Assembly (NCBI GenBank): GCA_040902295.1
Contig: JBBDXO010000308.1
Span: 1 to 56,771 of the forward strand
Direction of reading: 5' to 3'
DNA length: 56,771 bases
DNA from: Candidatus Rokuibacteriota bacterium
Lineage (GTDB): Bacteria; Methylomirabilota; Methylomirabilia; Rokubacteriales; CSP1-6
Under the pieces are notes generated by a model that saw only the letters and a program-made list of their open reading frames with translations, was not told the DNA's origin and searched no databases. Below are positions 2,766-33,043 of the stretch, piece by piece. The first letter of the stretch is position 1, and the number at the start of each line of letters is the position of its first letter. Position numbers and translations under genes: made by a program.

Positions 2766-3173
2766 ATGCAGACGACAACGGCCAACAAGCGAGTCCTGCT
2801 TGCCGAGGACGACCGCTTCCTTCGCCGCGCATGCGAGACGAGCCTGAGAGAGCGCGGGTTCACGGTGGCCACGGCCGCCGACGGTGAAGAGGCGCTACGG
2901 GCGGCGCTGGCCGACTGTCCCGACCTCATCGTGCTGGATATGCTGATGCCGAAGCTGTCCGGCCTGGACGTCCTGCGCGCGGTGCGCCGCGAGGCCTCCA
3001 CGAGCGCGGTGCCGGTGCTGATGATGTCCAGCTCCTCGAACGACCAGGACATCGAGGCCATGACCCGTCTGGGCGCCAACGGCTGCCTCGTGAAAGCCCG
3101 GCTCTCCCTGCAACAGCTCGGCGATCACGTCACCGCCTGCCTGGGCGGCCCCCCCGCTCGTAGCGCGATCTGA
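2766..3173 (+). CDS. stand-alone response regulator receiver (CheY-like REC only)
   Basis: RVLLAEDD acidic pocket, phospho-acceptor context DLIVLDMLMPKLSG, and conserved Ser/Thr and Lys regions (VLMMSSS, GCLVKA). 135 aa with no output domain. Confidence 0.85.
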   Translation: MQTTTANKRVLLAEDDRFLRRACETSLRERGFTVATAADGEEALRAALADCPDLIVLDMLMPKLSGLDVLRAVRREASTSAVPVLMMSSSSNDQDIEAMTRLGANGCLVKARLSLQQLGDHVTACLGGPPARSAI

Positions 3174-3934: not shown

Positions 3935-3950
3935 TGGCCCCCCTGTTGCA
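3935..3950 (+). promoter_or_regulatory. sigma-54 type -24/-12 promoter, TGGCCC-ccctg-TTGCA
   Basis: GG and GC are correctly spaced, with one mismatch in the -24 hexamer. It lies 65 nt upstream of ATG 4015, which has a strong SD (AAGGAGG at 4000-4006). Confidence 0.4.
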
Positions 3951-4014
3951 CCTTCGACACCTCGCTGCGGGCGCCGACCCTCCAGTCGGCGCTCCCCCCA
4001 AGGAGGCAGTGCCG

Positions 4015-4377
4015 ATGGCGAAGGTGATGGTGGTCGATGACGCGGTGTCGGAGCTCAAGCTGATGGAAGCGATCCTCAAAGGCGCCGGTCATCAGGTCGT
4101 CTCCTTCGTCGACGGCGATGAGCTCGAGGACAAGTGCACGAAGGAGCGCCCCGACCTCGTCCTCCTCGACATCGTGATGCCCAAGCGCAACGGGTACGAG
4201 ATCCTCCGCTCCCTCAAGAAGGACGCGCGCACGCGCGCGACCCCGGTGGTGCTCGTGAGCTCGAAGAACCAGGAGAGCGATCGCGTGTGGGGCAAGCGGC
4301 AGGGCGCCGACGACTACCTGCCGAAGCCCTTCACCTCGGACCAGCTCCTCAGCATGGTGGGGCGATTTGTTCGCTGA
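4015..4377 (+). CDS. cheY: CheY/PilH-like single-domain response regulator
   Basis: MAKVMVVDDAVSELK, DLVLLDIVMPKRNGYE, PVVLVSSK, DDYLPKPF. ATG 4015 is preceded by AAGGAGG. The upstream part of track ORF 3934-4377 is leader sequence. Confidence 0.85.
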   Translation: MAKVMVVDDAVSELKLMEAILKGAGHQVVSFVDGDELEDKCTKERPDLVLLDIVMPKRNGYEILRSLKKDARTRATPVVLVSSKNQESDRVWGKRQGADDYLPKPFTSDQLLSMVGRFVR

Positions 4378-4888
4378 CGCCGTCGCCGATGCCGGCGTCG
4401 CGTCCTCCGCCCCCCCCGTACCCACCGAGTCGTTTGCGGAGCGGCGCCGGCGCGCCTGCGTGTTCATGCTCGGGGAGGGCACGTATGCCGTCGACGTGCG
4501 CGACGCGCGCGAGGTGGTGACGCTGGACGGCTATACACCGGTCCCCGGCGCGCCCGCCTCCGTGGTGGGCGTCTTCAACCTTCGCGGCACCGTGCTGCCG
4601 CTCGTGGAAGCCCGGCCGCTGCTGGCGCGCGCGGCCGCGATCCCGGGGCCGGGCACGGCGGCGGTGGTGCTCGCCGCCCGCTCGTGGCGGGCCGCCGTCG
4701 CCATCGACCGCGTGGTGGGTCTCGAGTGGTTCGACGACGCCACGCTGGCGGCCGGCGGCGGCCCTTTCGCCGCGGGCACGTTCGCGCACGGCGACAGCGG
4801 CACCATCACGCTCCTCGACGCCGACGGACTGCTGTCGGCGTTGCGGGAAGCCTGGACGTCCCCCCCCTTCGCCACTCCAGAGGTGTGA
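4367..4888 (+). CDS. cheW: CheW-like coupling protein
   Basis: CheW-fold motifs: FMLGEGTYAVDVRDAREVV, PGAPASVVGVFNLRGTVLPLVE, AVAIDRVVGLE. TTG 4367 overlaps the upstream gene by 11 nt. Confidence 0.8.
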   Translation: MFADAVADAGVASSAPPVPTESFAERRRRACVFMLGEGTYAVDVRDAREVVTLDGYTPVPGAPASVVGVFNLRGTVLPLVEARPLLARAAAIPGPGTAAVVLAARSWRAAVAIDRVVGLEWFDDATLAAGGGPFAAGTFAHGDSGTITLLDADGLLSALREAWTSPPFATPEV

Positions 4889-4890
4889 TC

Positions 4891-6177
4891 ATGCGACGAC
4901 GACGCTTTCTCCAGCTCCTCGGCGGCACGGCGCCCGCATGGCTCGGCACACGCGCGTGGGCGCAGGGCTCCGCGTCCGCCGGACGCGCCACCGGCGTGCC
5001 CGGCGTCACCACCACGGATATCCGGGTGGGCATGAGCGCCGCCTTCAAGAAGACGGCGGCGGGCCTGGGCACGGAGCTGTACCGCGGCGCGCAGGCCTAC
5101 TACGACGACGTGAACGCGCGCGGCGGCGTCAACGGCCGCAACATCTCGGTCATCGCCCTCGACGACGGCTACGAGCCGCTGCCGTGCGTGAAGAACACCA
5201 TCCAGCTCATCGACAAGGAGTCCGTCTTCTTCCTGTCGAATTACGTGGGGACGCCCACCCTCACGCGGGCGCTGCCCGTCATCAAGCGCTACGGCGACGC
5301 GGGCGTCGTGCTCGTGGGCAACTTCACGGGGGCGCAGCCGCAGCGCGAGCCGCCCTACGGCGACTACGTGTTCAACATTCGCGCCTCCTACCGGCAGGAG
5401 ATGATGGCGCTCGTCGACCGCTTCTGGCAGGCAGGCGCGCGCAACTTCGGCGTCTACTACCAGATCGACGCGTACGGCCGCAGCGGGACGGACGGCGTCG
5501 CGCGCGGGCTGGCCCAGCGCGGCGCGAAGATCGTGGCGGAGGCGACGTACCCCCGCGGCGCGAAGTTCGAGCAGGACGTGAGCCCCGCCGTGCACGCGCT
5601 ACGCAAGGCGGGCGCGGACGTGGTCCTGTGCACGGGCGCCTACCAGGGCTGCGGCGCCTTCGTGAAGACGGCGCGCGACCTCGGCTGGCCCGTACCCATC
5701 TCCAACGTGTCGTTCGTCGGCTCCGACGCCATGCTCGCGCTGCTCGTCAAGCACAGCAAGGTCACCGGGCGCGACTACACGCGTGCCCTCGTCAACTCGC
5801 AGGTGGTGCCCAGCTACGACGATCTCAGCCTGCCCGCCGTGGCCGAGTACCGGACGCTGATGGACCGTCACAGCCCGGTCGTCCCCGAGGAGCTGCGCGA
5901 CGCCGGCTATGTCCCGCAGCGCTACAGCTTCATCAGCCTCGAAGGGTTCATCAACGCCAAGGTGGTGGTGGAGGCGCTCAAGCGGACGGGCGCGGCGCCC
6001 ACGCGCGCGGGCTTCCGTCAGGCGCTCGAGTCGCTGCGGGCGTTCGACCTCGGCATCGGCGCCATGCTCACGTTCGGGCCCGAGCGGCACCAGGGTCTCG
6101 ATTCCGTCTACTTCACCCGCATCGAGGGTGATCGCTGGGTTCCGGTCGCCGATTGGACGGCGGCCGTGTCCGCCTAG
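4891..6177 (+). CDS. Tat-signal periplasmic binding protein, type-I (Leu/Ile/Val-binding / AmiC-like) fold
   Basis: MRRRRFLQLLGGTAPAWLGTRAWAQG is a twin-arginine signal. The body resembles LivJ/Peripla_BP_6 proteins (GVNGRNISVIALDDGYEP, FFLSNYVGTPT, GVYYQIDAYGRSG). ATG 4891 lies 2 nt after the cheW stop. It is the tail of track ORF 4684-6177. Confidence 0.8.
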   Translation: MRRRRFLQLLGGTAPAWLGTRAWAQGSASAGRATGVPGVTTTDIRVGMSAAFKKTAAGLGTELYRGAQAYYDDVNARGGVNGRNISVIALDDGYEPLPCVKNTIQLIDKESVFFLSNYVGTPTLTRALPVIKRYGDAGVVLVGNFTGAQPQREPPYGDYVFNIRASYRQEMMALVDRFWQAGARNFGVYYQIDAYGRSGTDGVARGLAQRGAKIVAEATYPRGAKFEQDVSPAVHALRKAGADVVLCTGAYQGCGAFVKTARDLGWPVPISNVSFVGSDAMLALLVKHSKVTGRDYTRALVNSQVVPSYDDLSLPAVAEYRTLMDRHSPVVPEELRDAGYVPQRYSFISLEGFINAKVVVEALKRTGAAPTRAGFRQALESLRAFDLGIGAMLTFGPERHQGLDSVYFTRIEGDRWVPVADWTAAVSA

Positions 6178-6189
6178 GGGAGAGGGACC

Positions 6190-7962
6190 ATGAAGAAGCC
6201 GCGCGCACGTTTCGGACTGCTGCCGAAGATCATCCTGTTCCTGGTCGCCGTGCTCATCCCGCTCGCCGCCGTCACGTGGTACGTCTCGGTGCGGACGCTG
6301 AGCGAGCGGATGACCGAGGAGTTCACCTCCAAGGGCACCGCCATCGCCAACAGCCTCGCGAGCTCGGGGGTGGACCTCGTGCTCACGCGCGACGCCTCCA
6401 CGGTGCAGGCGCTCGTCGACCAGTTCGTCTCCATCAGCGGCGTCGCCTACGTCATGGTGTACGACCCGCAGAACACGCTCATCGCGCACACCTTCCACCC
6501 CCTGGTGCCGGTGGGGCTGCTCGAGAAGAACCTGGTTCCCGGCGACGCCGCCAAGCAGGTGCGCGACATCGTGTACGAGCATCCGGTGACGGCGGTGCCG
6601 CAGCACATCATCGACATCGGCGTGCCCATGCTGGGCGGCCAGCTGGGGACGGTCCGTGTCGGCATGGACCGCTCGATCATCTCCGCTGCCGCCGCCCAGT
6701 CCGGCTGGTACCTCTTCGCCGTCTTCGGCGGCGTCGCCGTCCTCGCGGTGGTGGCGGGCGCCGTCTTCGCGCGCCGGGTGACGAAGCCCGTGGGCGACAT
6801 CGTCCGCATCGCGCAGCAGGTGGGCCGCGGCGATCTCTCGGAGACCCTCAGCCTCCGCCGGCGCGACGAGATCGGGCAGCTCGCGGACACCTTCAACGAG
6901 GCCGTGGTGCGGCTGCGCTCGCAGGTGCTCACGGAGACCGAGCGCGACGAGGAGCGGGCCCGGCGCGAGGCGCTGCAGAAGAACATCACCGCCTTCCTCG
7001 ACACCGTCATGGAGATCTCCCAGGGCGACCTTCGCCGGCGCGGCGAGGTGACGCCGGACGTCCTCGGCAACGTGGTGGACTCGATCAACGTCATGGTGGA
7101 AGAGATCGCCTCCACCCTCGGCGACGTCCGCCACGCCGCCCTCCAGGTGGCGTCCAGCGCGACGGACATGATCGGCGCTACCGAGCAGATGGCCGAGGGC
7201 GCCGTGTCGCAGTCACGCGAGGCCACCACCATCAGCCGCGAGCTGGAGACGATGACGAAGTCCGTGCGCCAGGTCGCGCACAGCGCCGCCTCCTCCGCCG
7301 TCGCCTCCCGCAAGGCGGTGGAGGCCGCGCGCAAGGGTGACGCGGCGGTGCGCGACAGCCTGGGCGGCATGCAGAAGATCCGCAGCGAGGTGCAGGTCAT
7401 CTCCAAGAAGATCAAGGGCCTCGGCGACCGCTCGCTGGAGATCTCCGAGATCGTCAACACCATCGAGGAGATCGCCTCCCATACGAACCTGCTCGCGCTC
7501 AACGCGGCCATCGAGGCGGCGGGCGCGGGCGAGGCGGGGGTGCGGTTCGCCGTCGTCGCCGACGAGATCCGCAAGCTCGCCGAGCGCGCCGCGAAGGCGA
7601 CGAAGGAGATCGCGGGTCTCGTGCGCACGGTGCAGACGGAGACGCACGAAGCGGTCATCGCCATGGAAGACGGCACCCGGGAGGTGGAAGCGGGCTACCA
7701 GGTCACCATCCGCGCCGAGGAAAGCCTCAAGGAGATCGCCGACGTGTCCGAATCGTCGGCCGAGATGGCGGAGAAGATCTCGGACGCCACCCGCGACCAG
7801 GTGCGCGGCGCCGAGGGTGTGACGACGGCCATGACCTCCATCGCCGCCGTCGCCGTGCGCACGGAGCAGGCGGTGCTGCAGACGCGCAAGACCGTCGAAG
7901 ACCTGGTGAAGCTCGCCGACGAGCTCACGCGCAGCCTGTCCCGATTCAAGCTGGCGAGCTGA
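6190..7962 (+). CDS. methyl-accepting chemotaxis protein (TM1, periplasmic domain, TM2, HAMP, signalling domain)
   Basis: TM segments [18 protein letters not shown] and [21 protein letters not shown]; [23 protein letters not shown]...IGQLADTFN; conserved hairpin tip [42 protein letters not shown]. Confidence 0.9.
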
Positions 7963-7977
7963 TCGGCGCGCACGGTC

Positions 7978-10944
7978 ATGGCCGAGCCGGCCGACCAGGA
8001 GCTTCTTCGGTCCATCTTCCTCATGGAAGCATGGGACACGCTCGCCGCCCTCGAGGGCGGCGCCGGCGTCCTCTGCCTCGATCCCGTCACCGCGGAGTCG
8101 GCGGAGGCCCTCTTCGTCGTCACCCACCGGCTCAAGGGCGCCGCCTCGCTCCACGGCTTCCCCGGCGTGGCCGCGCTCGCGGACGACGTCGGCCGCATCC
8201 TCGAGAGCCTGCCCGCCGCCGAGGCCCCCGAGCGCGACGGAGCGGCCCGCCGCATCGCCACCCTCGTCACCCGCCTCAAGACCGCCCTCGACACCATCGC
8301 CGCCACGGGCACCGACGGCATCGACACCGAGGACACCACCACCACCACCACCAACACCATCAACGGTCGAACGGCGTGGGGGGAAATGGGGGGGCCGTCC
8401 AGCCCCCCCATTGTGAACGATCGCGAGGGGGGGCCGTCCAGCCCCCCCATTGTGAACGATCGCGAGGGCGACCCCGTGCGGGTCGAGCTGCACACATTCT
8501 TTACCGACAACGCGGACGTGCTGTCCTACTTCGCGCCCGAGGCGTCGGAGCACCTGGACGCCATGGGCACCGCCTTGCTCGCGCTGCAGAGCGGCGGCGA
8601 TGCCGACGACATCGACATGCTCTTTCGCGCCGTCCACACGCTCAAGGGCGCCGCGTACGTGGTGGGGTGCCGGCGCGTGGGCGAGGTGGCCCACCGGATC
8701 GAGGACGTCCTCGTGGAAGCGCGCGACGGCGCCCTCGTCATGACCGCGCCCATGATCGAGAGCGTCTTCACCGCCATGGACGTCATGCGGCTGATGCTCG
8801 GCATGAGCGCCGATACCTCCGCCAACATGACGGCGCGGTCGGAGGCGGCCCTCGCCGCGCTCGCGGAGTCGTTCGCGAGCGCGCCCGCACCGCCGGTGAC
8901 CGCCCCCGTGGTCGTCGTCTCCGAGGCAGCGCCCTCCTCCCTCGTGCCCGGCCCTCCGCGAGAGGCGCGCGCGCATCCGGCGCCGGGGGCGCCGGCGCCC
9001 GAGCGCGGCGGCCGCCAGACCATTCGCGTGGGTCTCGACCGCCTCGACTCGCTGATGGATCTGGTGGGCGAGATGGTGATCGCGCGCAGCCGCCTCGAGC
9101 GCCGGCTCGCCGAGCTGGAGCGCGTGAGCGGCACGCTCTTCGCGAGCCGCGCGCGGATGCTGCAGGCGGTGGGCGAGTTCGAGCGCAAGCATCTTGACGC
9201 CCGGCTGCCCGGCACCGACGGCGCCGCCCTGCCCGCGGCGCCCGAGCCCTCGCTGCCCACGGCGTTGTCGGTGTCGGAGCTGTTCGCGGAGCTGGAGTTC
9301 GACCGCTACGACGACTTCAACATCTTCGCGCGGCGCGCGGGCGAGATCTCGTCCGACCTCTCCGAGGTGCACGCGGAGCTGGCCGGCCTCACGCGCGTGA
9401 TCGGCGACGATCTCGCCCACGTGCATCGGCTCACGGGCGGGCTGCGCGACGAGATCGCCCGCGCGCGGCTGGTGCCCATCGGCACCCTCTTCACCCGCTT
9501 CGTGCGCCAGGGCGGGGAGGCCGCCCGCGCCGCCGGCAAGAGCGTGCGGGTGGAGACGGAAGGCGATGCGGTCGAGCTCGACACCGGCATCATCGAGCAG
9601 ATCGTGGATCCCCTGCTGCACCTCGTGCAGAACGCGGTGGTCCACGGCATCGAGCCCGCCGACGAACGCCGCGCGCGGGGCAAGCCCGCGGAGGGGCGGC
9701 TCACGCTGGGCGCCCGCCACCAGGGCGGGTTCGTGTACATCGAGGTGAGGGACGACGGCCGCGGCATCGACGCCGACATCCTCCGAGGGCGCGCGGTGGC
9801 GCAGCGCTTCGTCGACGGCGGCGCGGCGGCGGCCCTCAGCGAGCGCGAGGCGCTCGAGCTCATCTTCCTGCCGGGCTTCAGCACGGCCGCGGCCGTCACG
9901 GCGGCCTCCGGCCGCGGTGTGGGCATGGACGTCGTGCGCACCAACGTCCGCCGGCTCAACGGCGACATCGAGGTGCAGACGGACCTTGGCGCGGGGACGC
10001 GCTTCATCATCAAGCTGCCGCTCACCGTGCTCGTCTCCGAAGCCCTGCTCGTTCGCGTGGCGGGCGAGACGCTGGCGGTGCCGCTGAACGCCGTGCAGAC
10101 GGTGCTCACCGTGGACGCGGCGGATGTGCGCAGGGACTCCGACGGGGAGTCGATCGTGGTGGACGGCGACGGCGTCCACCTCGTGCCGCTCGATCGCGTG
10201 CTCCTGCTCCCCATGCCGCCGCGCGGCCCCCACGCCCACGTGCTGGTGCTGCGCGCGCCGGGCGGCCCCCTCGCGGTCGAGGTCGACGAGATCCTCCGCA
10301 AGGAAGAGATGGTCATCAAGCCGCTCGGACCCTTTCTCGACGGCGTGGGGCCCTTCGCGGGCGCCACCATCGGGTCGGACGGCCGGGTCATGCTGCTGCT
10401 GGATGCGGTCAAGCTCTCCGAATCAAAGGCGGCGGCGACGGCGGCGCGGGCAGCCCCCGAGCCACCCCCGCCCGGTGCCGGGTCCCCCCTCGCTGGGAGC
10501 ACTCGCGCCACCGTCGCCGCCGCCAAGGTTCCGCCGGGTGCCACCGCGGGCCGCCTCGCGCGGGCGCGCGTGCTGCTGGTCGACGACTCGATCAGCGTGC
10601 GGCGCTTCGTGGGACGGATGCTGACGGTGGGCGGCTTCGAGGTCGTGACCGCCAACGACGGGGCCGAGGCCATCAGCAGGGTCGCGGAGGGCCGCTTCGA
10701 CGTCGTCATCACCGATCTCGAGATGCCGCGCGTGAACGGCTACGAGCTCATCGAGGACCTGCGCCGGCGCTCGTCGACGCGCCACGTGCCGGTCATCGTG
10801 CTCACCACGCGGGCGGGTGACAAGCACGTGTCGCTGGCGCGGCGCCTCGGCGTCGAGCACTACGTCACCAAGCCCGTGGACGAGACGACGTTCGTGCGCC
10901 TCGTCGGCTCCCTCGCGTCGCCTCCGGCGGACGCTGCCCGGTGA
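7978..10944 (+). CDS. cheA: hybrid CheA-type histidine kinase: Hpt, Hpt, dimerisation, HATPase, CheW-like, REC
   Basis: Two Hpt boxes (VVTHRLKGAASLHG; AVHTLKGAAYVVG); dimerisation region IRVGLDRLDSLMDLVGEMVI; N-box HLVQNAVVHGIE; G-boxes VRDDGRGID and GRGVGMDVV; CheW-like region LLVRVAGETLAVPLNAV; C-terminal receiver VLLVDDS...VVITDLEMPRVNGYE...VIVLTTR...YVTKP. Confidence 0.9.
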   Translation: MAEPADQELLRSIFLMEAWDTLAALEGGAGVLCLDPVTAESAEALFVVTHRLKGAASLHGFPGVAALADDVGRILESLPAAEAPERDGAARRIATLVTRLKTALDTIAATGTDGIDTEDTTTTTTNTINGRTAWGEMGGPSSPPIVNDREGGPSSPPIVNDREGDPVRVELHTFFTDNADVLSYFAPEASEHLDAMGTALLALQSGGDADDIDMLFRAVHTLKGAAYVVGCRRVGEVAHRIEDVLVEARDGALVMTAPMIESVFTAMDVMRLMLGMSADTSANMTARSEAALAALAESFASAPAPPVTAPVVVVSEAAPSSLVPGPPREARAHPAPGAPAPERGGRQTIRVGLDRLDSLMDLVGEMVIARSRLERRLAELERVSGTLFASRARMLQAVGEFERKHLDARLPGTDGAALPAAPEPSLPTALSVSELFAELEFDRYDDFNIFARRAGEISSDLSEVHAELAGLTRVIGDDLAHVHRLTGGLRDEIARARLVPIGTLFTRFVRQGGEAARAAGKSVRVETEGDAVELDTGIIEQIVDPLLHLVQNAVVHGIEPADERRARGKPAEGRLTLGARHQGGFVYIEVRDDGRGIDADILRGRAVAQRFVDGGAAAALSEREALELIFLPGFSTAAAVTAASGRGVGMDVVRTNVRRLNGDIEVQTDLGAGTRFIIKLPLTVLVSEALLVRVAGETLAVPLNAVQTVLTVDAADVRRDSDGESIVVDGDGVHLVPLDRVLLLPMPPRGPHAHVLVLRAPGGPLAVEVDEILRKEEMVIKPLGPFLDGVGPFAGATIGSDGRVMLLLDAVKLSESKAAATAARAAPEPPPPGAGSPLAGSTRATVAAAKVPPGATAGRLARARVLLVDDSISVRRFVGRMLTVGGFEVVTANDGAEAISRVAEGRFDVVITDLEMPRVNGYELIEDLRRRSSTRHVPVIVLTTRAGDKHVSLARRLGVEHYVTKPVDETTFVRLVGSLASPPADAAR
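8388..8465 (+). repeat. perfect 2 x 39-bp in-frame tandem duplication inside cheA linker
   Basis: Bases 8388-8426 equal 8427-8465 (gggggggccgtccagcccccccattgtgaacgatcgcga), and the next 3 nt (ggg) start a third unit. The repeat encodes GGPSSPPIVNDRE twice between Hpt1 and Hpt2. Confidence 0.95.
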
Positions 10945-11909
10945 AGATCCTCGTCGTCGATCCGGACCGCGCGCGGGCCAACGATCTCCAGGGCCTGCTC
11001 GCGGCGAGCGGCGCCGAGGTGTCGGTGGCGTCCAGCGGATCGTTCGCGCTCACGATGCTCGAATGGAACAAGCAGGACGTCATCGTGAGCCACGCCCGCA
11101 TCGACGACATGGACGGCCACGAGCTGTGCGGCATCGTGCGGAGCGATCCGTCGACGGAGGGCGTGCGCTTCGTCCTCATCGCCTCCGCCGAGCAGGCCAG
11201 CCCGGCCGAGACGTCGGCGGCCGGGATCGACCTGGTGCTGCCGTCGAGCATGACCGGCTCGATGATGGTGCCGCTCGTGGTCCAGCTCGTGCGGCACGAT
11301 CTCGGCGGCACGCCCGCGCACGATCCTCTCCCCTCGGCGCTCCCGGCGCCGGCTCCCGTGAGGGCGCCCCGCGCGGTGCCGCCGCCTGCGGCCGTACCCC
11401 CACCCCCCCCGGCGCCCGCGCCGGTGGTCGTGCCGAAGGCCGCCCCGGCGCCGCCGGTGCCCGTGCCCGCCGCCGCCGCGTCGCCGCCGGCACCCCGCGC
11501 GCCCGGGACGAACGGTGGCGCCGGCACCCTGCGGCTGAGCGATCTCGACGCCGTGGGCGCCGAGGGCGCGGTGAAGACGTTCCAGGGCTCGCTGGGCGTC
11601 ATGGAGATGGAGGAGCTCGTGCAGGCGATCTCGATGGGGGGCAAGAGCGGCCGCCTGCTGCTCGTGCTGGCGTCCGGCGGCGGCATGATCGTCTTCATGA
11701 GCGGCCGCGTCGTGCACGCGGAGTTCGGAGCGAAGTCCGGCGAGCCCGCCTTCGAAGCGCTCGTGACCACCGCGCACCGCGAGCGTTCGGGAAAGTTCTG
11801 CTTCATTCCCGGCGACGGGCGCGCGTCCTCCAGCGCCGCCGCGACCATCTCGAAGAGCACCGACCAATTGCTGCTCAGCGTCGCTACGGCGATGGACGAG
11901 GAGAGGTAA
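10941..11909 (+). CDS. response regulator: N-terminal REC, Pro/Ala linker, C-terminal DUF4388 (PATAN-like) domain
   Basis: REC region KILVVDPD...DVIVSHARIDDMDGHE...FVLIAS. Linker PAPAPVRAPRAVPPPAAVPPPPPAPAP. The C-terminal segment FQGSLGVMEMEELVQAISMGGKSGRLLLV...GMIVFMSGRVVHAEFG...GEPAFEALV matches the DUF4388 pattern as I recall it. GTG 10941 overlaps the cheA stop (GTGA). Confidence 0.75.
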   Translation: MKILVVDPDRARANDLQGLLAASGAEVSVASSGSFALTMLEWNKQDVIVSHARIDDMDGHELCGIVRSDPSTEGVRFVLIASAEQASPAETSAAGIDLVLPSSMTGSMMVPLVVQLVRHDLGGTPAHDPLPSALPAPAPVRAPRAVPPPAAVPPPPPAPAPVVVPKAAPAPPVPVPAAAASPPAPRAPGTNGGAGTLRLSDLDAVGAEGAVKTFQGSLGVMEMEELVQAISMGGKSGRLLLVLASGGGMIVFMSGRVVHAEFGAKSGEPAFEALVTTAHRERSGKFCFIPGDGRASSSAAATISKSTDQLLLSVATAMDEER

Positions 11910-11912
11910 CCC

Positions 11913-12767
11913 ATGCCCAAGGTGCTGGTGATCGACGACAGCGTGAGCGTGCGGAAAGTGGTGGAGCGGGCGCTCGCAGGCCGCCAGATCGACGTCGTCA
12001 CCGCCGCCTCCGGCGCGGAAGCCATCGACCGGCTGGAGAAGGAGGAGCCCGACATCGTCGTGTGCGACGTGGTCATGCCCGACCGCGACGGCTACGACAT
12101 CTGCGAGTTCGTGAAGAGCCACGCCCGTCTCGGGCTGACTCCGGTGCTCCTCATGTCGGGCATCGTCAACGACGAGGTCCGTCAGAAGGCGGCGGCGGCG
12201 CGGTGCGATGGCGTGCTCGCCAAGCCCTTCGCCGGCGAAGATCTCGTTCGCCATCTGGAAGCGCTTCTGCCGTCGAAGCTGAAGGTGGCCGCGCCGGCGG
12301 CGGCGGCCGCCCCCGCGCCGCCGGCCGCTGTGCCCGCTCCGGCGCGGGCCGCTGCTGCCGTCAGCATGCCCGTGCCCGCGTCCGCGACGAGCCCGCCCGT
12401 TGCACCGGAGGTCGCGGGCACGGCGCGGTCGATCCTGGTCACGATCGGCGCCATGGAAGGCGTGCAATGGGCCGTCCTCGCCGATCGCGAGGGCTACCTG
12501 ATCGAGGCCACCGCCGAATCGGGCGTGGACGCCGAAGTGGCGGGAGCGCTCAGCGCCTGCCTGGCGGAGTCCTCGGACGGGCTCGGCCGGGAGCTCGGAC
12601 GCGGAAACCTGCAGGGCATGATCCTGGAATACGAAAAGGGCATGGTGGTGCTGCACGGCGTGGGCGCGGGCGCCCTGCTCGCCATCGGCCTCTCGGAGCC
12701 CTCCGCCCTCGGCAAGGTCCGCTACTACGCCAAGAAGGCGCTCGCCGAGCTCGCACGAGTCATGTGA
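11913..12767 (+). CDS. response regulator: N-terminal REC, Pro/Ala linker, C-terminal Roadblock/LC7 (MglB-like) domain
   Basis: REC region KVLVIDDSVSVRK...DIVVCDVVMPDRDGYD...VLLMSG...GVLAKPF. The C-terminal ~110 aa (ILVTIGAMEGVQWAVLADREGYLIEATAESGVDAEVAGALSA...MILEYEKGMVVLHGVGAGALLAIGLSEPSALGKVRYYAKKALAEL) has the Roadblock alpha-beta-alpha pattern. Confidence 0.8.
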   Translation: MPKVLVIDDSVSVRKVVERALAGRQIDVVTAASGAEAIDRLEKEEPDIVVCDVVMPDRDGYDICEFVKSHARLGLTPVLLMSGIVNDEVRQKAAAARCDGVLAKPFAGEDLVRHLEALLPSKLKVAAPAAAAAPAPPAAVPAPARAAAAVSMPVPASATSPPVAPEVAGTARSILVTIGAMEGVQWAVLADREGYLIEATAESGVDAEVAGALSACLAESSDGLGRELGRGNLQGMILEYEKGMVVLHGVGAGALLAIGLSEPSALGKVRYYAKKALAELARVM

Positions 12768-12769
12768 CC

Positions 12770-14719
12770 ATGGCGCGCCACCGCCCGTCGCCGCCGCACG
12801 CCGGCCTGCGCGCGCTCGCCACCGCTTTCGCATGCGTCGCCCTCACGGCCGCCGTGCTGCGCTTCGACGTCGCCGGCGGGCTCACCGTGCCCGCGTGGAC
12901 GGCTGTCCTGCCCCTCCTCGTGTACGTGGCGCTCGCCGCCATCACGCTGGGGCGCGCTTCGCTGCGGCCTCGCCTGGTCTGGCTGGCCGGCGCGTGCGCC
13001 ACCCACGCGCTCGTCGTCGTCGCCACCGCCGCCGTCGTGGCCGCCGCCGGCGCCGACTCGCTGGCGACGGCGCTGCCGAGCGCGATCGTGGAGTCTCCGC
13101 TTGCGACCGTCATCTTCCTCGCCGGCGTTCCCCTCACGCTGCTGCCGTTTCGCGGTCGCCTGTTGCCGCGGCCCGCCGCGCGGGCGTCCTCCCCGAGGCC
13201 GGCCGCTCCGGCGCCGCCGCGGACGGGGCGGCCGGCGAGCGCGCCGGTGGCGGGGGAAACTCCGTTCGCGCGCGAGGCGCGGCGCCGGATGGCGGTGGCC
13301 GCGCCGCCGCCGGTGCAGGCCCCCGCCGCCGCCGCCGCCGTGCCCTCCCCGGCGCCGGTGCTTGTCCTGCGGCCGCCTGCGCGTCCGGTGGTGGCACCGA
13401 TGCCGGTCCGCGCCGCCGCCGAGCCGACGGTGACCATTGCCTTCGAGCGGATCGCCGCGCAGCTGCCCGCCGATGTCTTTCTGCTGCCGATGGACCGGCT
13501 CGCGGAGAGCATGCGCTCGCCGCACGAGCTGCTCGTGCCGCGCAGCCTCGTCGTGGCGCAGCTCGCCGAAGGGCAGGTCGAGGTGGCGTGGGCGCTCGTG
13601 GAGGACCAGTTCCCGACGCTGGCCTTCGCGCTCGAGGCCTCGGAGATCCGCAGGCGGTATCCGGAGCTGCGCCTGCTGCTGCCGCTCGACCTCGTCGTGT
13701 CGCAGCTTCCGCCGGCCGTCTTCTCGGCCGCCGCGCCCGTCGCCGAGCTCGGCGGCCTCGATCGCTACCCGGCGCCGTTTCAACCCTCCTCCGGCGCCAC
13801 CGTTCCCGCCGTCCCGCCCGCTTCGCGCCCGGCGACCCCGGCCGCCGCCCCGCCGCCGGTGGCGCCGGCCGCGCCTGCACCGTCGGTGACGCTGGCACCG
13901 GCGATCGTCGAGGCGCCGGTCGTCCCGCGTCCGCCGGCGGCGGCGCCCGCGAGCGCGGCGCCCGCCGTGGCCGTGACGGCCGTGCCCCCGTCGGAGGCGG
14001 CGCTGCTCGCGCAGGGGCAACGGCTGGCGACGCGCCTGGTGGCCTTCGGGCCGCTGGAGGTCGGGGTCCGGCGCCTGAACGGGACGACCGTGCTGTCGCT
14101 GGTGACGGCCGGGCGGCCGCACGAGGCGATCGAGCGCGCCGCGGCGCGGTGCGCGCCGCTGCTCGCCGCGGCGCACCAGGTGACCATCCACACCGACCGC
14201 GTGTCGATGCTCCTCACGCGCGTGTGCGGCGGCGTGCTGGTGATCGGGCTCCGGGCGGGCGCGCCGCTGGCGATGCTCGAGATCCTGGTGGTCCGCGCGT
14301 GCGGTGGGGAGCCGGCGGGGGGGGCGCCTGCAGGCGTCCCCCGTGGCCTGGCCGCCGCCGACGTCGACGGGCGGGTGGCCGCGCTGGGGGGTGCGCTGCA
14401 GGGCTTTGGTCCCGTGGTGCCGGCGGCATTCGTGGACCGTGCGGGCGGGCTCGACGTGTACGTCTTCTCGACGGCGGCGGAGGCCCAGGTCGCGGGTGAG
14501 GAAGCCCGGGTGGTCTGGCAGGCGCTCGTGCACGAGGGTGAGCGCGACCTCGGGCGGGCGCGGTCGGTGGTGCTGCGCGAGGGCCCGCGACGGACGGTCG
14601 TGTATCCGGTGGCCGCCGCACGGCGGCCCGCGATGCTGGCGGCGGCGGGCGTGCTCGCGTTGCCGGGCCTCGCCTACCGGCAGGCGGCGCGGGCGGCCGA
14701 GCGCCTGGCCGCGGTGTGA
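12770..14719 (+). CDS. 649-aa membrane-anchored Pro/Ala-rich protein with two Roadblock-like C-terminal segments
   Basis: ATG 12770 lies 2 nt after the upstream stop; it is the tail of track ORF 10817-14719. There are about four N-terminal TM segments and long AP-rich tracts. A central region carries the repeated motifs AQLPADVF and SQLPPAVF. Two C-terminal ~100-aa blocks (LATRLVAFGPLEVGVRRLNGTTVLSLV...VLVIGLRAGAPLAMLEILVVRA, and LGGALQGFGPVVPAAFVDRAGGLDVYVF...AMLAAAGVLALPGLAYRQAARAAERL) read like Roadblock folds; this is an inference. Confidence 0.6.
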   Translation: MARHRPSPPHAGLRALATAFACVALTAAVLRFDVAGGLTVPAWTAVLPLLVYVALAAITLGRASLRPRLVWLAGACATHALVVVATAAVVAAAGADSLATALPSAIVESPLATVIFLAGVPLTLLPFRGRLLPRPAARASSPRPAAPAPPRTGRPASAPVAGETPFAREARRRMAVAAPPPVQAPAAAAAVPSPAPVLVLRPPARPVVAPMPVRAAAEPTVTIAFERIAAQLPADVFLLPMDRLAESMRSPHELLVPRSLVVAQLAEGQVEVAWALVEDQFPTLAFALEASEIRRRYPELRLLLPLDLVVSQLPPAVFSAAAPVAELGGLDRYPAPFQPSSGATVPAVPPASRPATPAAAPPPVAPAAPAPSVTLAPAIVEAPVVPRPPAAAPASAAPAVAVTAVPPSEAALLAQGQRLATRLVAFGPLEVGVRRLNGTTVLSLVTAGRPHEAIERAAARCAPLLAAAHQVTIHTDRVSMLLTRVCGGVLVIGLRAGAPLAMLEILVVRACGGEPAGGAPAGVPRGLAAADVDGRVAALGGALQGFGPVVPAAFVDRAGGLDVYVFSTAAEAQVAGEEARVVWQALVHEGERDLGRARSVVLREGPRRTVVYPVAAARRPAMLAAAGVLALPGLAYRQAARAAERLAAV

Positions 14720-14720
14720 G

Positions 14721-15329
14721 ATGTCGATCATCAACTATGCGGCCAAGGTCATCAACTTCAAGATCGTGTATTACGGCCCCGGGATGGCGGGCAAGACGGC
14801 GAACCTCCAGTACGTGCACCGCTGCCTGCCCGACGCCAACAAGGGCCACATGATCTCGCTCGCCGCCGGCGACGACCGCACGCTCTTCTTCGATTTCCTG
14901 CCCGTGACCGCCCTCAGCGTGCGGGGCTTCACGACGAAGTTCCAGCTCTACACGGTGCCGGGCCAGAGCCACTACAACATGACGCGCAAGCTCGTCCTGC
15001 GCGGGGTGGACGGCGTCGTCTTCGTGGCGGACTCGCAGTGGGACCGGCTGCGCGAGAACGTGGAGAGCTTCCGCAACCTCGGCGACAACCTCAGGGAGTA
15101 CCAGCTCGATCTTGCCGCGACGCCGTACGTCGTCCAGTACAACAAGCGCGATCTCGGCAACGTGGCTCCCTGCGAGTACCTGGAGTACATGCTGAACCGG
15201 GGCGCCCGGCGGGCGCCGTCGTTCGAAGCGGTCGCGCTCGAGGGCAAGGGCGTGTTCGACACGCTGAATACCGTGTCGCGCATGGTCCTCGTCAGGGAGT
15301 TCGACGAGCGGCCGGAGGGAGCGTCCTGA
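14721..15329 (+). CDS. mglA: MglA, Ras-like small GTPase of the gliding/polarity family
   Basis: Near-colinear with Myxococcus MglA as I recall it: MSIINYAAKVINFKIVYYGPGMAGKTANLQY (P-loop), DRTLFFDFLP (intrinsic Arg), YTVPGQ (Thr in place of the DxxGQ Asp), GVDGVVFVADSQ, QYNKRDL (G4). 202 aa. ATG lies 1 nt after the upstream stop. Confidence 0.92.
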   Translation: MSIINYAAKVINFKIVYYGPGMAGKTANLQYVHRCLPDANKGHMISLAAGDDRTLFFDFLPVTALSVRGFTTKFQLYTVPGQSHYNMTRKLVLRGVDGVVFVADSQWDRLRENVESFRNLGDNLREYQLDLAATPYVVQYNKRDLGNVAPCEYLEYMLNRGARRAPSFEAVALEGKGVFDTLNTVSRMVLVREFDERPEGAS

Positions 15330-15811
15330 TGCGACACGATGTGGTCATTCACGAGAGCGATGCGGCGGGCATCGACGCCGTGCTGAGCCGCTTCCTCGCC
15401 GACTCGGGGGCGAGCGCCGCTCTCCTCATCGACCGCAGCGGCCAGCCGCTGGCGCAGTGCGGCACCTCGCCGGCGCCGGACACGGCGTCCATGGGCGCGC
15501 TCGCCGCGGGCGCCTTCAGCGCCACCGCCGCCCTCGCGCGGCTGCTCGGGGAAAGCGAGTTCTCCGTCCTCTTCCACGAGGGCAAGCACGAGAGCCTGCA
15601 CGTGTCCACCGTGGACGACTTCACGATTCTCCTCGCGGTCTTCGGCGACCACACCACCGTCGGCATGGTGCGGCTCTTTGCGCGCGAGACCAGCGCGTCG
15701 ATCGGCGTCATCCTCGAGGCCACGCGCGCGCGGCCGCGACGGACGGGCGCTCTCGCGGCGCCGCTCACGGCTGAAGAAGCCGGGCGCGCGATCGATCATC
15801 GTCCCGCGTAA
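15329..15811 (+). CDS. mglB: MglB, Roadblock/LC7-type GTPase-activating partner of MglA
   Basis: LLGESEFSVLFHEGKHESLHVSTVDD...TTVGMVRLFARETSASI parallels Myxococcus MglB (LIGENEFPNQFHEGAKDSLYMTIVG...TSLGLVRLRIKKASDEL). ATG 15329 shares one base with the mglA stop (TGATG). 160 aa. Confidence 0.85.
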   Translation: MRHDVVIHESDAAGIDAVLSRFLADSGASAALLIDRSGQPLAQCGTSPAPDTASMGALAAGAFSATAALARLLGESEFSVLFHEGKHESLHVSTVDDFTILLAVFGDHTTVGMVRLFARETSASIGVILEATRARPRRTGALAAPLTAEEAGRAIDHRPA

Positions 15812-15856
15812 GCGGCGGCCGCCGCCGTCCGGGCGCCGGCCGGGGGAGCGGCCGCG

Positions 15857-16684
15857 ATGCCGCTGCTGAGCCGGATGTGGGCGTCCCGCCGCGCCCTCAC
15901 GCTGGTGGAAGCGTTCCGCCGTGCCGACCGGTTCCGGCGCGAGGGCCGGCTGCCGGAGGCCATGGCGATGGTCGGGTACGGGCTGGGCCTCGATCCCGAC
16001 AACATCACGGGGCACCTGCTCGCGGCCTACCTTCATGCGGCCGGCCGCGCGATGGCGCCGGCGAAGGCGGAGTTTCAGTGGGTGCTTGGCCGCGATCCTC
16101 ACCACGCCCGAGCCCTTCTCGGCCTCGCCCGCATCGCGCTCGAGGAGGGCCAGCCCACGGGCTGCCGCGAGCTCCTCGGCCGGGCCCTGCGCTTCTACCC
16201 CGAGTTTCCGGAGGCGCAGGCCCTGCTGGGGGCCGTGACCGCGCTGGCCGCCCCCGCGCCGCCCGCCGTCGCCCCCGTCACCCTCGACCGGCTGCGCCTG
16301 CCCGACCACGGCCGGTCGCTCGTGGTCGCCCGCCACGACGGCGCGCTGGTGGGGACGGGCGACGGTGACGACGACGAGGCGACGCGCGCGGCCGCCCTCG
16401 CCCGCATCCTGGTGGTGGCGGCGGCGGCGCTCACGCGCGGAGGCTTCGGCGCCGTGCGCCGTGCCATCGTGGAGGACCGCGAGGAGGCCGTCTTCGCGCG
16501 CACGGACGGCGCCATGCTGGTCGCGCTCACGCTGCCACGCACGACGGCGATCACGCAGGGGCTGCTGGAGGTCAACCGGTTGTGGGCGGGAGTCCGGCAG
16601 GTCGACGCACCGGCGTCGTCTTCTGCGCCGGGGACGGCTGCGACGACCGCGCCCGAGAGCGCGTCGGACAGGAGAGCATCATGA
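15857..16684 (+). CDS. TPR-repeat N-terminal domain fused to a Roadblock-like C-terminal domain
   Basis: TPR-like helices: EAMAMVGYGLGLDPDNITGHLLAAYLHAAGR, AKAEFQWVLGRDPHHARALLGLARIALEEGQ, GRALRFYPEFPEAQALLG. The C-terminal half (SLVVARHDGALVGTG...AALARILVVAAAALTRGGFGAVRRAIVEDREEAVFARTDGAMLVALTL) is Roadblock-like. GGGGGAG SD lies before ATG 15857. Confidence 0.6.
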   Translation: MPLLSRMWASRRALTLVEAFRRADRFRREGRLPEAMAMVGYGLGLDPDNITGHLLAAYLHAAGRAMAPAKAEFQWVLGRDPHHARALLGLARIALEEGQPTGCRELLGRALRFYPEFPEAQALLGAVTALAAPAPPAVAPVTLDRLRLPDHGRSLVVARHDGALVGTGDGDDDEATRAAALARILVVAAAALTRGGFGAVRRAIVEDREEAVFARTDGAMLVALTLPRTTAITQGLLEVNRLWAGVRQVDAPASSSAPGTAATTAPESASDRRAS

Positions 16685-17130
16685 CGCCATCCCGACTCGT
16701 GCAATCGCCGGCCCCCCGGCTCACGCTGTCGCTCGAGAGTGAGACGGGCGCCCGCGGCCGTCACGTCTGCGACGTGGTGGAGCGGCTGGTGGACCTGCAC
16801 CTCGTCCGCGGCGCGATGATCGTGGCGCCCGACGGGTTCGTGATCGCCGCCCAGCTCCCGCCTGCGCTCGCCGTGGAGCCGCTCGCCGCGCTGGCGGCGA
16901 CGCTCGGCCGCGAGCTGGAGATCAACGCCGCCCGCCTCGGTGGCACGCCGTTCCAGACGGCGCTCTTCTCGGCCGACGACGGGACGCTGTGCCTGGGGAC
17001 GACGCGCATCGGCTTCGTGGTGGTGCTCGCCGAGCCGCACGCCAACCTCCACACCATCCGCGCCGCCGTTCGGGACGCCGTCGCGCGTATCGAAGCGGTG
17101 TGGCAGGAGGCGGCGCCGCCCCCCGCCTGA
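16681..17130 (+). CDS. stand-alone Roadblock/LC7 domain protein
   Basis: VVERLVDLHLVRGAMIVAPDGFVIAAQLPPALAVEPLAALAATLGRELE...QTALFSADDGTLCLGTTRIGFVVVLAEPHANLHTIR. ATG 16681 overlaps the upstream stop (ATGA). 149 aa. Confidence 0.7.
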   Translation: MTPSRLVQSPAPRLTLSLESETGARGRHVCDVVERLVDLHLVRGAMIVAPDGFVIAAQLPPALAVEPLAALAATLGRELEINAARLGGTPFQTALFSADDGTLCLGTTRIGFVVVLAEPHANLHTIRAAVRDAVARIEAVWQEAAPPPA

Positions 17131-17132: not shown

Positions 17133-19693
<2,561 letters not shown>

Positions 19694-19712
19694 GGCAGGA
19701 GCACGGCGGCGC

Positions 19713-27895: not shown

Positions 27896-27925
27896 ACTCT
27901 ACATGCGCGTCGTGTCCGGTGTCAA
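27896..27925 (-). promoter_or_regulatory. sigma-70-like promoter for the pyr operon, TTGACA-18-TAGAGT
   Basis: On the minus strand, TTGACA (27925-27920) overlaps the stop of the upstream kinase gene, followed by an 18-nt spacer and TAGAGT (27901-27896). This would give a ~60-nt leader containing the PyrR hairpin. Confidence 0.4.
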
Positions 27926-29850: not shown

Positions 29851-29891
29851 GGCCTACCCGCTCGAGAAAGTGATCTGAGCATAACACGCCG

Positions 29892-32961: not shown

Positions 32962-33043
32962 CCGGGGTGACACTTGGCGTCGGCCAGGCCGACACCGGAC
33001 ACTCGATCCGTCCGTAACTGCGCGGACTATCGAGGTGACGGCT

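Follow-up and report, generated by a model that had tools for sequence, protein, structure and literature searches.

In Myxococcus xanthus, a receiver and two Roadblock proteins form the RomR/MglC/MglB complex, on which the Frz chemosensory system acts. The GTPase MglA of this species acts via the TPR protein SgmX. The usual order of the GTPase genes is mglB-mglA (Table S2, PMC4316618). In cyanobacteria, PilB1 is a binding partner of PATAN regulators, and genes for PATAN proteins also occur beside mglAB. In Chloroflexi, Chlorobi and Aquificae, the domain adjoins mglA/mglB of group 1, and fusions of a receiver (REC) to Robl_LC7 were noted to exist, without an assigned function (Makarova et al. 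2006; Wuichet and Sogaard-Andersen 2014). Here, a complete chemosensory pathway, a Ras-like polarity GTPase, Roadblock helpers and a new membrane protein are found together in one conserved block. Its individual parts are known, and both the PATAN-MglAB linkage and the REC-Robl fusions had been mentioned in passing; a literature search retrieved no description of the whole architecture or of the membrane protein (g8), in agreement with a first-pass annotation of this DNA that did not place the intermediates among characterised proteins.

Layout of the putative operon and chemosensory genes

The window (the entire stretch of DNA analysed, 56,771 nt, from an uncultured soil bacterium of the Rokubacteria) contains a putative operon of 12 co-directional, closely packed genes, g1 to g12, on the + strand (4015-17130). 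The 12 ORFs delimited by the first-pass annotation are clean, and its junctions were correct: g1/g2 overlap by 11 nt, g5/g6 by 4 nt (GTGA), g9/g10 by 1 nt (TGATG) and g11/g12 by 4 nt (ATGA), while the widest gap, of 45 nt, separates g10 and g11. Pfam largely matched its domain list as well (REC, CheW, Peripla_BP_6, MCPsignal, two Hpt, HATPase_c, DUF4388 and Robl_LC7), and did not find DUF742 in the 12 products. GC3 is 0.89-0.96 across all 12 genes, and the DNA covered by the promoter/terminator scan has 72% GC. Genes cheB and cheR were not found in the 56 kb window, which abounds in orphan REC and histidine kinase (HK) genes. Directly downstream of the operon, and convergent to it, lies a gene for a GAF-PAS hybrid HK (17133-20149).

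The first five genes make up the chemosensory half. Gene g1 (4015..4377), with an AGGAGG ribosome-binding site 5' of it, encodes a single-domain CheY-like receiver (Pfam Response_reg, 91 bits) with D12/D13/D57/S87/K109 intact in an alignment to E. coli CheY. It is followed by a CheW coupling protein (g2, 4367..4888; Pfam CheW, 78 bits; TTG start), and the overlap between both genes also occurs in relative L001, from an independent gene call. The product of g3 (4891..6177) is a LivJ-like periplasmic solute-binding protein (Peripla_BP_6, 164 bits) with a twin-arginine leader (MRRRRFLQ); the gene is kept in L001 and L003 and missing at the P0046 locus, whose chemoreceptor has a dCache_1 domain instead. 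The transmembrane chemoreceptor of the operon (g4, 6190..7962) combines sCache_3_2, HAMP and MCPsignal domains (Pfam; NCBIfam MCP models). Finally, g5 (7978..10944) encodes a hybrid CheA (NCBIfam CheA, E=4e-101) with the Pfam order Hpt, Hpt, H-kinase_dim, HATPase_c, CheW-like and C-terminal REC; both Hpt domains contain the H-x-x-KG motif and the catalytic residues of the REC are intact.

Two further receivers follow, each joined by a Pro/Ala linker to a different domain. In g6 (10941..11909), a weak REC (33.6 bits) precedes a PATAN domain (DUF4388, 48 bits). This REC has lost the phospho-acceptor Asp (D57 is H, and R, Y or G in homologues) together with D13, T87 and K109; because the acceptor and K109 are missing, it is, judged by these residues, a conserved pseudo-receiver that should not be phosphorylatable. 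Conversely, g7 (11913..12767) has a canonical REC (82 bits) with D57/S87/K109 intact, and a C-terminal Roadblock/LC7 domain (37 bits) that matches the PDB Roadblock 9jue_D (E=4.8e-6), Thermus MglB (about 1e-5) and, in hhalign, MglB (90%). Thus, the four receiver domains previously counted in the operon do exist, but only three of them, those of g1, g7 and the CheA C-terminus, are predicted to be phosphorylatable.

The GTPase genes, their Roadblock partners and the membrane protein

Gene g9 (14721..15329) encodes a true MglA small GTPase of the group-1 type (3t12_A, E=3e-67; M. xanthus MglA, E=3e-63) in which the P-loop G21/T26, R53, T78 and Q82 (M. xanthus numbering) are conserved, and g10 (15329..15811) its Roadblock GAP MglB (Pfam Robl_LC7, 58.7 bits; 6izw_B, E=2e-22; NCBIfam MglB, E=3e-19), which bears out the identities initially given to both products. 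The order mglA-mglB is the reverse of the usual one. Gene g12 (16681..17130) encodes a single-domain Roadblock protein that scores 26.5 bits with Robl_LC7, over the Pfam cut-off of 23 bits, and 87-95% (hhalign) with the C-terminal domain of g7. The product of g11 (15857..16684) contains a TPR region (about aa 20-130; Pfam TPR_19) and a conserved C-terminal domain in which Pfam detected no Roadblock and for which Foldseek gave no significant match in the PDB. Nevertheless, this domain is probably Roadblock-like, as suggested by profile and model comparisons of moderate strength: profile comparison gave 74%/35% against the g12 profile and 46% (E=2e-4) against a merged Roadblock profile, and its homologue P0053 is labelled Roadblock/LC7/MglB family by JGI.

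The lineage-specific membrane protein g8 (649 aa; 12770..14719; 47 homologues) had zero sequence matches in Pfam, NCBIfam or the PDB. A 669-aa antisense ORF over this gene was rejected (GC3 0.83, Arg/Gly-rich nonsense), the + frame, with a GC3 of 0.925, being the coding one. The AF2 model of the whole protein (pLDDT 78.6) starts with a predicted four-helix transmembrane bundle (aa 11-131, 12800..13162; helices 11-32, 42-59, 65-92 and 98-131). The C-terminal part would be cytoplasmic by the positive-inside rule, since the N-terminus and the segment after the transmembrane helices are both Arg-rich. Alignment A1 defined a new conserved domain at aa 218-340 (13421..13789), modelled with a pLDDT of about 95 as beta-alpha repeats with QLP/QFP ends, in which R227, Q231, P233, G268, W274, Q280, P282, P305, D307, Q312 and P314 are invariant. 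This domain is rare (232 clusters in 1.84e9 proteins, with 1-8 copies per protein), and profile comparison linked it to neither PATAN nor Roadblock.

The C-terminal half of g8 (AF2 pLDDT 92, pTM 0.90) contains two modules, D1 (aa 409-511, 13994..14302) and D2 (aa 534-648, 14369..14713), which are probably Roadblock-like. Pfam found Roadblock nowhere in g8, and a Foldseek search of the PDB returned no significant match for the modules; the assignment, moderately supported, comes from AF2 topology (alpha-beta-beta-alpha-beta-beta-beta-alpha in D1) and from profile comparison, which gave 55-60% (hhalign) for D1 against D2 and 65.6% (E=5.8e-5, 105 columns) for both merged against the Roadblock profile. 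Additionally, profile A4, spanning both modules (aa 403-649), matches CvnB5 (3leq) at E=0.09, with the aligned stretch (profile positions 41-112) lying within D1. The proposal of up to five further Roadblock-type domains in the operon is thus plausible, as the domain of g7 is solid and g12 passes the Pfam cut-off, with moderate support for the C-terminus of g11 and the two modules of g8. As for the domain assignments themselves, Pfam recovered DUF4388 in g6 and Robl_LC7 in g7 and g12, but not the Roadblock assigned to g11.

Conservation of the linkage and the presence of pilB

The DNA pattern of the g8 domain was found in 40 species genomes, 36 of them from Rokubacteria/Methylomirabilota, so that the system is nearly all within this one phylum-level lineage; all organisms compared are uncultured MAGs. 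The genes for CheA, REC-PATAN, REC-Robl, g8, MglA and MglB are syntenic in about 40 species-representative genomes, and the order is retained even in divergent homologues (26-33% identity). Counting only loci whose flanks were visible, g7 was upstream of g8 in 32/32, REC-PATAN in 26/28 and CheA in 22/23, and MglA was downstream in 27/32; the fifth of these synteny counts was 21/24. No MglA accompanies the g8-like gene in L016 and L029. The pair g11-g12 is inverted in L003 and L007 and therefore at least this pair is a separable unit.

A fortuitous adjacency of two operons, che and mglAB, on one contig is highly improbable and already contradicted by the conservation data: about 40 species keep the order, across g8 identities as low as about 26-30%, the overlaps of stop and start codons at the boundary recur (e.g., the 4-nt CheA/REC-PATAN overlap, in independent gene calls), and the flanking housekeeping genes vary between loci. 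The che and mgl halves are a genuinely linked, conserved unit, as the first-pass annotation had proposed for this contig.

Among the about 24 loci whose flank was visible, about 14 have a pilB gene right after mglB (roughly 60% of relatives). The product of this gene is a true type IVa PilB, a full-length orthologue of that from M. xanthus (3jc8, E=9e-195), and probably the output of the system. Neither the lineage confinement nor PilB figured in the first-pass annotation. In the 56 kb window, pilB was not found in the operon or elsewhere, nor were other pilus genes. This, and the about 10 relatives in which mglB also lacks a following pilB, would fit the same linkage serving another polar process (gliding, division-site or pole identity, secretion or DNA uptake), with pilB as an optional passenger; MglA-family outputs do vary (e.g., Bdellovibrio predation or Streptomyces conservon development). 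We consider this unlikely, however, with pilB as the sole recurring effector-type gene in the block, abutting or overlapping mglB (by 26 nt in L001), PATAN domains tied to PilB independently, and twitching-motility genes widespread in Rokubacteria.

Proposed pathway and comparison with described systems

Our preferred reading, with a probability of roughly 0.6, is that of a Rokubacteria-specific supermodule in which a chemotaxis-type pathway is wired to MglA/MglB and most likely controls where or when type IVa pili extend and, with it, surface motility. Ligand binding by g3 and/or the sCache domain of g4 would modulate the autophosphorylation of CheA, which could then pass phosphate to g1, to g7 and to its own REC, which, by analogy with FrzE-type kinases, may be a sink or an autoinhibitor. 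Phosphorylation of g7, probably the link between kinase and GTPase cycle, might alter its Roadblock pairing with MglB or with g12, the g11 C-terminus and the g8 modules; in turn, MglB GAP activity or the placement of the complex at the membrane or pole would shift, and with them the level of MglA-GTP. The cytoplasmic membrane anchor of this Roadblock assembly would be g8. Finally, MglA-GTP may act on PilB together with g6, as a PATAN adaptor, and with the TPR protein g11, as suggested by the precedents of PATAN-PilB1 binding in cyanobacteria and MglA-SgmX in M. xanthus.

The direct path from phosphorylation to the GTPase cycle thus envisaged assumes, from gene adjacency, phosphotransfer from CheA to g7. 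The halves might instead be co-expressed and not directly wired, CheA serving only g1 and its own REC, and g7 depending on another kinase or on no phosphorylation at all; the adjacent hybrid HK could be an alternative donor, and orphan kinases and receivers are plentiful in the window. This seems quite unlikely to us: the hybrid HK is missing from L001 and L003, where pyrF/carB or other genes come after g12, CheA and g7 occur together in 22/23 visible loci, and the retention of phospho-acceptor residues in g7, lost in its neighbour g6, argues for selection on g7 phosphorylation.

Wired in this manner, the operon would resemble eukaryotic Ragulator/LAMTOR-Rag in that several Roadblock domains on a membrane anchor regulate a small GTPase. 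The analogy is architectural only (g7 C-terminal domain against LAMTOR2, E=0.06, no significant sequence link); the anchor is a polytopic g8 instead of the lipidated LAMTOR1, and the GTPase is MglA instead of a Rag heterodimer. Actinobacterial conservons (CvnA-D) likewise unite a kinase-type sensor, Roadblock protein and MglA-family GTPase in one membrane-associated operon unit, but with a membrane HK-like CvnA, a DUF742 protein and a group-2 GTPase, and no Che proteins, PATAN or PilB. Cyanobacterial Tax/Pix operons share a chemotaxis-like set (CheY, CheW, MCP and hybrid CheA), a PATAN protein and the PilB target, although they lack MglA/MglB and Roadblock proteins, and their PatA-type regulators carry an N-terminal PATAN and a phosphorylatable C-terminal REC, whereas in g6 the two domains stand the other way round and the receiver is dead. 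The PATAN-MglA-MglB neighbourhoods recorded earlier, with Rokubacteria unsampled, comprised 2-4 genes, none of them recorded as a che gene, pilB or a counterpart of g8. M. xanthus Frz with MglA/MglB/MglC/RomR has the same hybrid CheA-REC, CheY-type receivers, MglA, Roadblock GAP MglB, extra Roadblock paralogue(s), TPR protein (there SgmX) and PilB target (here, pilB in relatives). In M. xanthus, however, the genes are dispersed, with mglA not near frz or romR and in the order mglB-mglA. A RomR-like protein, with a Glu-rich region at its C-terminus, was not observed in the operon block, where a receiver and a Roadblock domain are fused in g7, and to which the PATAN pseudo-receiver protein and g8 are additions over M. 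xanthus.

Composition and conservation of the che-mgl block

The first-pass annotation had described twelve ORFs on the + strand (4,015–17,130, here g1 to g12), and all of them proved to be clean, with correct coordinates and junctions and with a GC content at third codon positions (GC3) of 0.89–0.96 in each gene, as determined from codon-position GC. An antisense ORF of 669 aa running across g8 was discarded for its GC3 of 0.83 and its Arg/Gly-rich nonsense product, and the gene for g8 is therefore that of the + frame. Pfam assigned a receiver domain (REC) to g1, CheW to g2, Peripla_BP_6 to g3 (a periplasmic binding protein, PBP, whose sequence also contains the twin-arginine leader MRRRRFLQ), a weak REC plus DUF4388/PATAN to g6, REC plus Robl_LC7 to g7, Robl_LC7 to g10 and to g12, and TPR to g11; Pfam and NCBIfam together defined g4 as an MCP with an sCache_3_2-HAMP-MCPsignal architecture and g5 as a CheA with two Hpt domains (HxxKG in both), dimerisation, HATPase_c and CheW-like domains and a C-terminal REC. 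The previous domain calls for g1–g7, g10 and g12 (the che half and the PATAN, REC-Roadblock, MglB and Roadblock proteins) were supported by Pfam and NCBIfam, and the expected Roadblock and DUF4388 domains were found by Pfam within 10,941–12,767 (DUF4388 in g6, Robl_LC7 in g7) and 15,857–17,130 (Robl_LC7 in g12).

Homologs of g8, a 649-aa membrane protein, with 26–41% identity lie in neighborhoods with the same gene order and the same tight junctions. A degenerate DNA pattern, hand-built from the invariant residues of g8 and validated locally before scanning species-representative genomes, matched 40 out of 185,579 of them, with 36 of the 40 labelled as Rokubacteria/Methylomirabilota and three as Binatia. 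Neighbors of g8 were counted using tblastn with the window proteins, considering only loci with visible flank: the REC-Roadblock gene g7 was directly upstream of g8 in 32 of 32 visible loci, the REC-PATAN gene g6 was upstream in 26 of 28 and cheA (g5) in 22 of 23, and mglA (g9) and mglB (g10) were found downstream in 27 of 32 and 21 of 24, respectively. The proposed co-occurrence of REC-Robl, REC-DUF4388 and g8 with mglAB and cheA in other genomes consequently held in most of the loci with visible flank. Likewise, the 4-nt overlap between cheA and the REC-PATAN gene recurs in the independent gene calls of two of these loci, L001 and L003, and the housekeeping flanks of the block vary from locus to locus. 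The conserved order, the recurring overlap and the differing flanks indicate, from sequence comparison, that the che-mgl linkage is real and selected. The pair g11-g12 is inverted in L003 and L007, so that at least these two genes constitute a separable unit.

The same REC-Robl/g8/MglA/MglB(/PilB) block occurs in loci L024, L027 and L039, labelled as Candidatus Binatia; these copies could result from horizontal transfer, mis-binning or taxonomic mislabelling. Additionally, L016 (679–2,554) and L029 (3,480–7,304) contain REC-Robl, short g8-like, MglB-like and g12-like genes with no MglA match between them, a variant that may be a paralogous GTPase-less cluster.

About 14 of the approximately 24 loci with enough downstream sequence carry after mglB, and often overlapping it, the gene for a 680–760-aa ATPase that is a full-length ortholog of type IVa PilB (3jc8, E = 9e-195); in these loci, g11 and g12 come after pilB. 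The PilB encoded in these loci has an N-terminal extension of ca. 115–190 aa, without counterpart in PilB from M. xanthus or Geobacter, that consists of a conserved helical/TPR-like segment followed by a Pro/Ala-rich linker (L001, 13,253–13,840; L005, 7,961–8,300) and that hhalign found unrelated to PATAN, Roadblock or TPR profiles. Neither pilB nor other pilus genes were found in the window, where the block is flanked by pyrimidine-biosynthesis, CoA-transferase, chaperone and translation genes, as annotated by GC3-based ORF choice and Pfam. Convergent with g12 there is a hybrid histidine kinase gene (17,133–20,149, − strand), apparently split by a frameshift into GAF-PAS-HisKA (17,879–20,149) and HATPase_c-REC (17,133 to ca. 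17,915) frames, which makes it a pseudogene unless the frameshift is a sequencing error of the MAG; it is absent at the same position in L001 and L003. The window is dense in other two-component genes, at 2,766–3,173 (+), 27,922–29,853 (−), 33,039–33,440 (+) and 37,860–40,484 (−); they encode two orphan receivers with a single domain, a hybrid HK-REC with PAS and an NtrY-like kinase with HAMP and PAS, and are possible cross-talk partners.

The chemosensory half and its receivers

According to Pfam and NCBIfam, the block contains a complete core Che pathway, with MCP, CheW, CheA and CheY; no CheR or CheB turned up in the operon or elsewhere in the window as far as Pfam covered it, and the variant from L005 and L026 includes CheB plus additional CheW genes. 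The sensory end also differs among loci, with a PBP and an sCache MCP in the window and a dCache MCP without PBP in the locus of the homologous protein P0046.

We aligned every receiver of the block to E. coli CheY. Residues D12, D13, D57, S/T87 and K109 (CheY numbering) are intact in g1, in the REC from CheA and in g7, whereas the REC from g6 has a His at the phospho-acceptor position (D57) and has lost D13, T87 and K109. In more than 25 Rokubacterial homologs of g6 the phospho-acceptor position is occupied by Arg, Tyr or Gly. The loss of the acceptor Asp and of K109 in g6 and its homologs makes this REC a conserved pseudo-receiver, to which phosphotransfer cannot occur. The phosphorelay had been credited with four receiver domains, of which that of g6 is thus dead and those of g1, CheA and g7 are intact; g7 is the sole receiver of the block physically fused to a GTPase-regulator fold.

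In the divergent relative L046 (3–717), PATAN is a stand-alone protein of 114 aa preceded by a separate ORF of 111 aa, and the pseudo-receiver and PATAN halves are therefore separable. Within the stretch of cheA for the Hpt1-Hpt2 linker, GGPSSPPIVNDRE is encoded twice by a perfect 39-bp tandem duplication (8,388–8,468; 2.1 copies, 100% match), which lies just 3′ of a (CAC)n/Thr run (8,334–8,364) and has the appearance of very recent slippage or of an assembly artefact.

The GTPase, its putative GAP and candidate Roadblock partners

MglB is the GAP of MglA, and the identification of g9 as a true MglA and of g10 as MglB was borne out by sequence matches in the PDB. The g9 product matched MglA from Thermus (3t12_A, E = 3e-67, residues 1–192) and from M. 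xanthus (E = 3e-63), and its motifs GPGMAGKT, DDRTLFFDF and YTVPGQ are at identical numbering to M. xanthus MglA. It has the P-loop residues G21/T26, the intrinsic Arg finger R53, Thr78 replacing the Asp of DxxGQ, and the catalytic Q82; its full-length similarity, these signature residues and the adjoining cognate mglB gene fit a group 1 small GTPase of the MglA family. For g10, Robl_LC7 scored 58.7 bits in Pfam (cut-off, 23), M. xanthus MglB (6izw_B) was matched in the PDB with E = 2e-22, and the NCBIfam MglB model gave E = 3e-19, under the equivalog cut-off of that model; these values suggest that g10 is a putative MglA GAP of the MglB/Roadblock-LC7 kind. In the window (14,721–15,811), mglA precedes mglB with a 1-nt overlap, and this order is kept across Rokubacterial loci. 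It is the reverse of the usual mglB-mglA order, which is that of nearly all the group-1 loci in part 1 of Table S2 from Wuichet and Sogaard-Andersen (2014; PMC4316618).

Up to five further Roadblock-type domains had been proposed for the block. Those of g12 (Robl_LC7, 26.5 bits in Pfam) and of the C-terminal domain of g7 are significant. For the latter, Robl_LC7 (36.9 bits, Pfam) and PDB matches to Roadblock structures (E ca. 5e-6) and to Thermus MglB (E = 1e-5) make a solid sequence-based case for a Roadblock domain. The remaining candidates, the C-terminal domain of g11 and the two C-terminal modules of g8 (D1, aa 409–511, and D2, aa 534–648), reached only moderate profile matches, and Pfam gave no Roadblock match in any of them. 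The g11 domain is probably Roadblock-like, with hhalign values of 46–74% against Roadblock profiles.

Sequence searches of Pfam, NCBIfam and the PDB gave no match for g8, and its architecture was deduced from an alignment of 24 homologs and an AlphaFold model. As proposed before, it is a membrane protein with Pro/Ala-rich disordered linkers, with four transmembrane helices at aa 11–131; the Arg-rich segments before and after these helices imply that the C-terminal part is cytoplasmic. A strongly conserved and very well predicted domain of ca. 120 aa (aa 218–340) comprises beta-alpha units ending in QLP/QFP. This domain is rare (232 clusters in 1.84 billion representatives, with 1–8 copies per protein) and unrelated by hhalign to PATAN, Roadblock or TPR profiles. 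Its tandem copies occur in proteins of up to ca. 1,650 aa (e.g., P0179, P0180 and P0182; L003, 10,784–12,985; L011; L040), and their number differs even between close relatives.

The C-terminal half of g8 alone was modelled by AlphaFold with a pLDDT of 92 and a pTM of 0.90, and D1 and D2 both show the order alpha-beta-beta-alpha-beta-beta-beta-alpha in the AF2 model, with 55–60% in their mutual hhalign comparison. A merged D1+D2 profile matched a merged Roadblock profile with 65.6% (E = 5.8e-5, 105 columns in register), versus 0.1–0.4% for control domains. The profile of aa 403–649 had a single Roadblock-type match in the PDB, CvnB5 (E = 0.09), and Robl_LC7 was touched by Pfam, weakly (E = 0.018), in one of the 24 homologs. 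Foldseek searches of the PDB with the whole model and with the C-terminal half retrieved nothing at E ≤ 0.001, with TM ≤ 0.17 among the 50 matches listed, and the Roadblock-like nature of D1 and D2, suggested by profiles and models, is therefore probable and not proven. The Foldseek matches listed were to HPPD and meaningless (rmsd of 18–20 Å). Together, g8 defines a new, rare protein family with a new domain.

A candidate polarity module and its relation to known systems

In Myxococcus, it is still a matter of debate by what route phosphorylation in the chemosensory system alters the MglA/MglB polarity switch; FrzX, FrzZ, RomR, MglC and RomY are encoded at scattered genomic sites there, and the view of their roles continues to be revised. 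With a probability of roughly 0.6, we consider the block to encode an MglA/MglB module under Che control that serves pilus polarity or motility. One conserved block contains the kinase, the REC-Roadblock protein, the GTPase with its putative GAP and, in most cases, the pilus motor as well, which is strong comparative evidence for receiver-Roadblock coupling as the probable point where the phosphorelay meets the G-protein cycle. In the mechanism that we propose, CheA~P would phosphorylate g7, and phospho-g7 would alter Roadblock pairing with MglB, g12, g11 or g8, changing GAP activity or location; the assembly would be tethered to the membrane by g8, and MglA-GTP would act on PilB in concert with g6 as PATAN adaptor and with the TPR protein. 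A more specific version, which we put forward as a rather doubtful one, would have g8, g7, MglB, g11 and g12 form a platform with multiple Roadblock domains, anchored in the membrane. Phosphorylation of g7, dependent on CheA, would switch the composition of this platform and so gate GAP (or GEF) activity toward MglA, and the QLP-repeat domain of g8 would be the docking site for PilB or the pole. If true, the platform would parallel the Ragulator-Rag arrangement in prokaryotes, under the control of phosphorylation, and would amount to the Frz-to-MglA connection in a minimal and genetically compact form. The soluble proteins of the block are a small, defined set that could be reconstituted in vitro, and the block also yields the first specific hypothesis on the steering of surface motility in Rokubacteria, which are globally distributed and uncultured.

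Rokubacteria carry twitching-motility genes, and we found no work connecting this group with MglA. Nor did the literature covered, which did not extend to the 2006 PATAN paper, include a characterised regulator of the receiver-Roadblock type or an operon with the layout che-PATAN-Roadblock-mglAB(-pilB), and this architecture appears to be previously undescribed. The survey of small GTPases in prokaryotes from 2014 (PMC4316618), which is older than the Rokubacterial genomes, contains only short PATAN/MglB/MglA neighborhoods, devotes one sentence to REC-Robl fusions and states that, in the organisms it studied, mglA lies away from its signalling partners.

In M. xanthus, the receiver protein RomR is in complex with the Roadblock proteins MglC and MglB, and Frz acts on the polarity module; pili are activated by MglA via a TPR protein. 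RomR consists of REC, a Pro-rich region and an acidic C-terminal helix and FrzZ is a dual receiver; judging by domain layout alone, neither arrangement occurs in the twelve products (g7 is REC, linker and Roadblock; g1 is a single REC). PilB1 is a binding partner of PATAN regulators in cyanobacteria. Genes for PATAN proteins are found next to mglAB. The PATAN of g6 is well supported (DUF4388/PatA_N, 48 bits; cut-off, 25 in Pfam). PatA-type regulators carry PATAN at the N-terminus and, behind it, a receiver that can be phosphorylated, whereas in g6 a dead REC precedes PATAN. Actinobacterial conservons are four-gene operons for a CvnA membrane kinase, a CvnB Roadblock protein, a CvnC DUF742 protein and a CvnD GTPase; the block does not belong with them, as it lacks DUF742 and a CvnA-type kinase and its GTPase is group-1 MglA-like. 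By layout only, it resembles the Pil-Chp/Tfp class in the CheY-CheW-MCP-CheA order, in the pair of Hpt domains and the C-terminal REC of CheA, and in the linkage to PilB. The parts are of known kinds. What is new is the combination of a conserved architecture with a pseudo-receiver-PATAN protein, a REC-Roadblock link and the g8 family.
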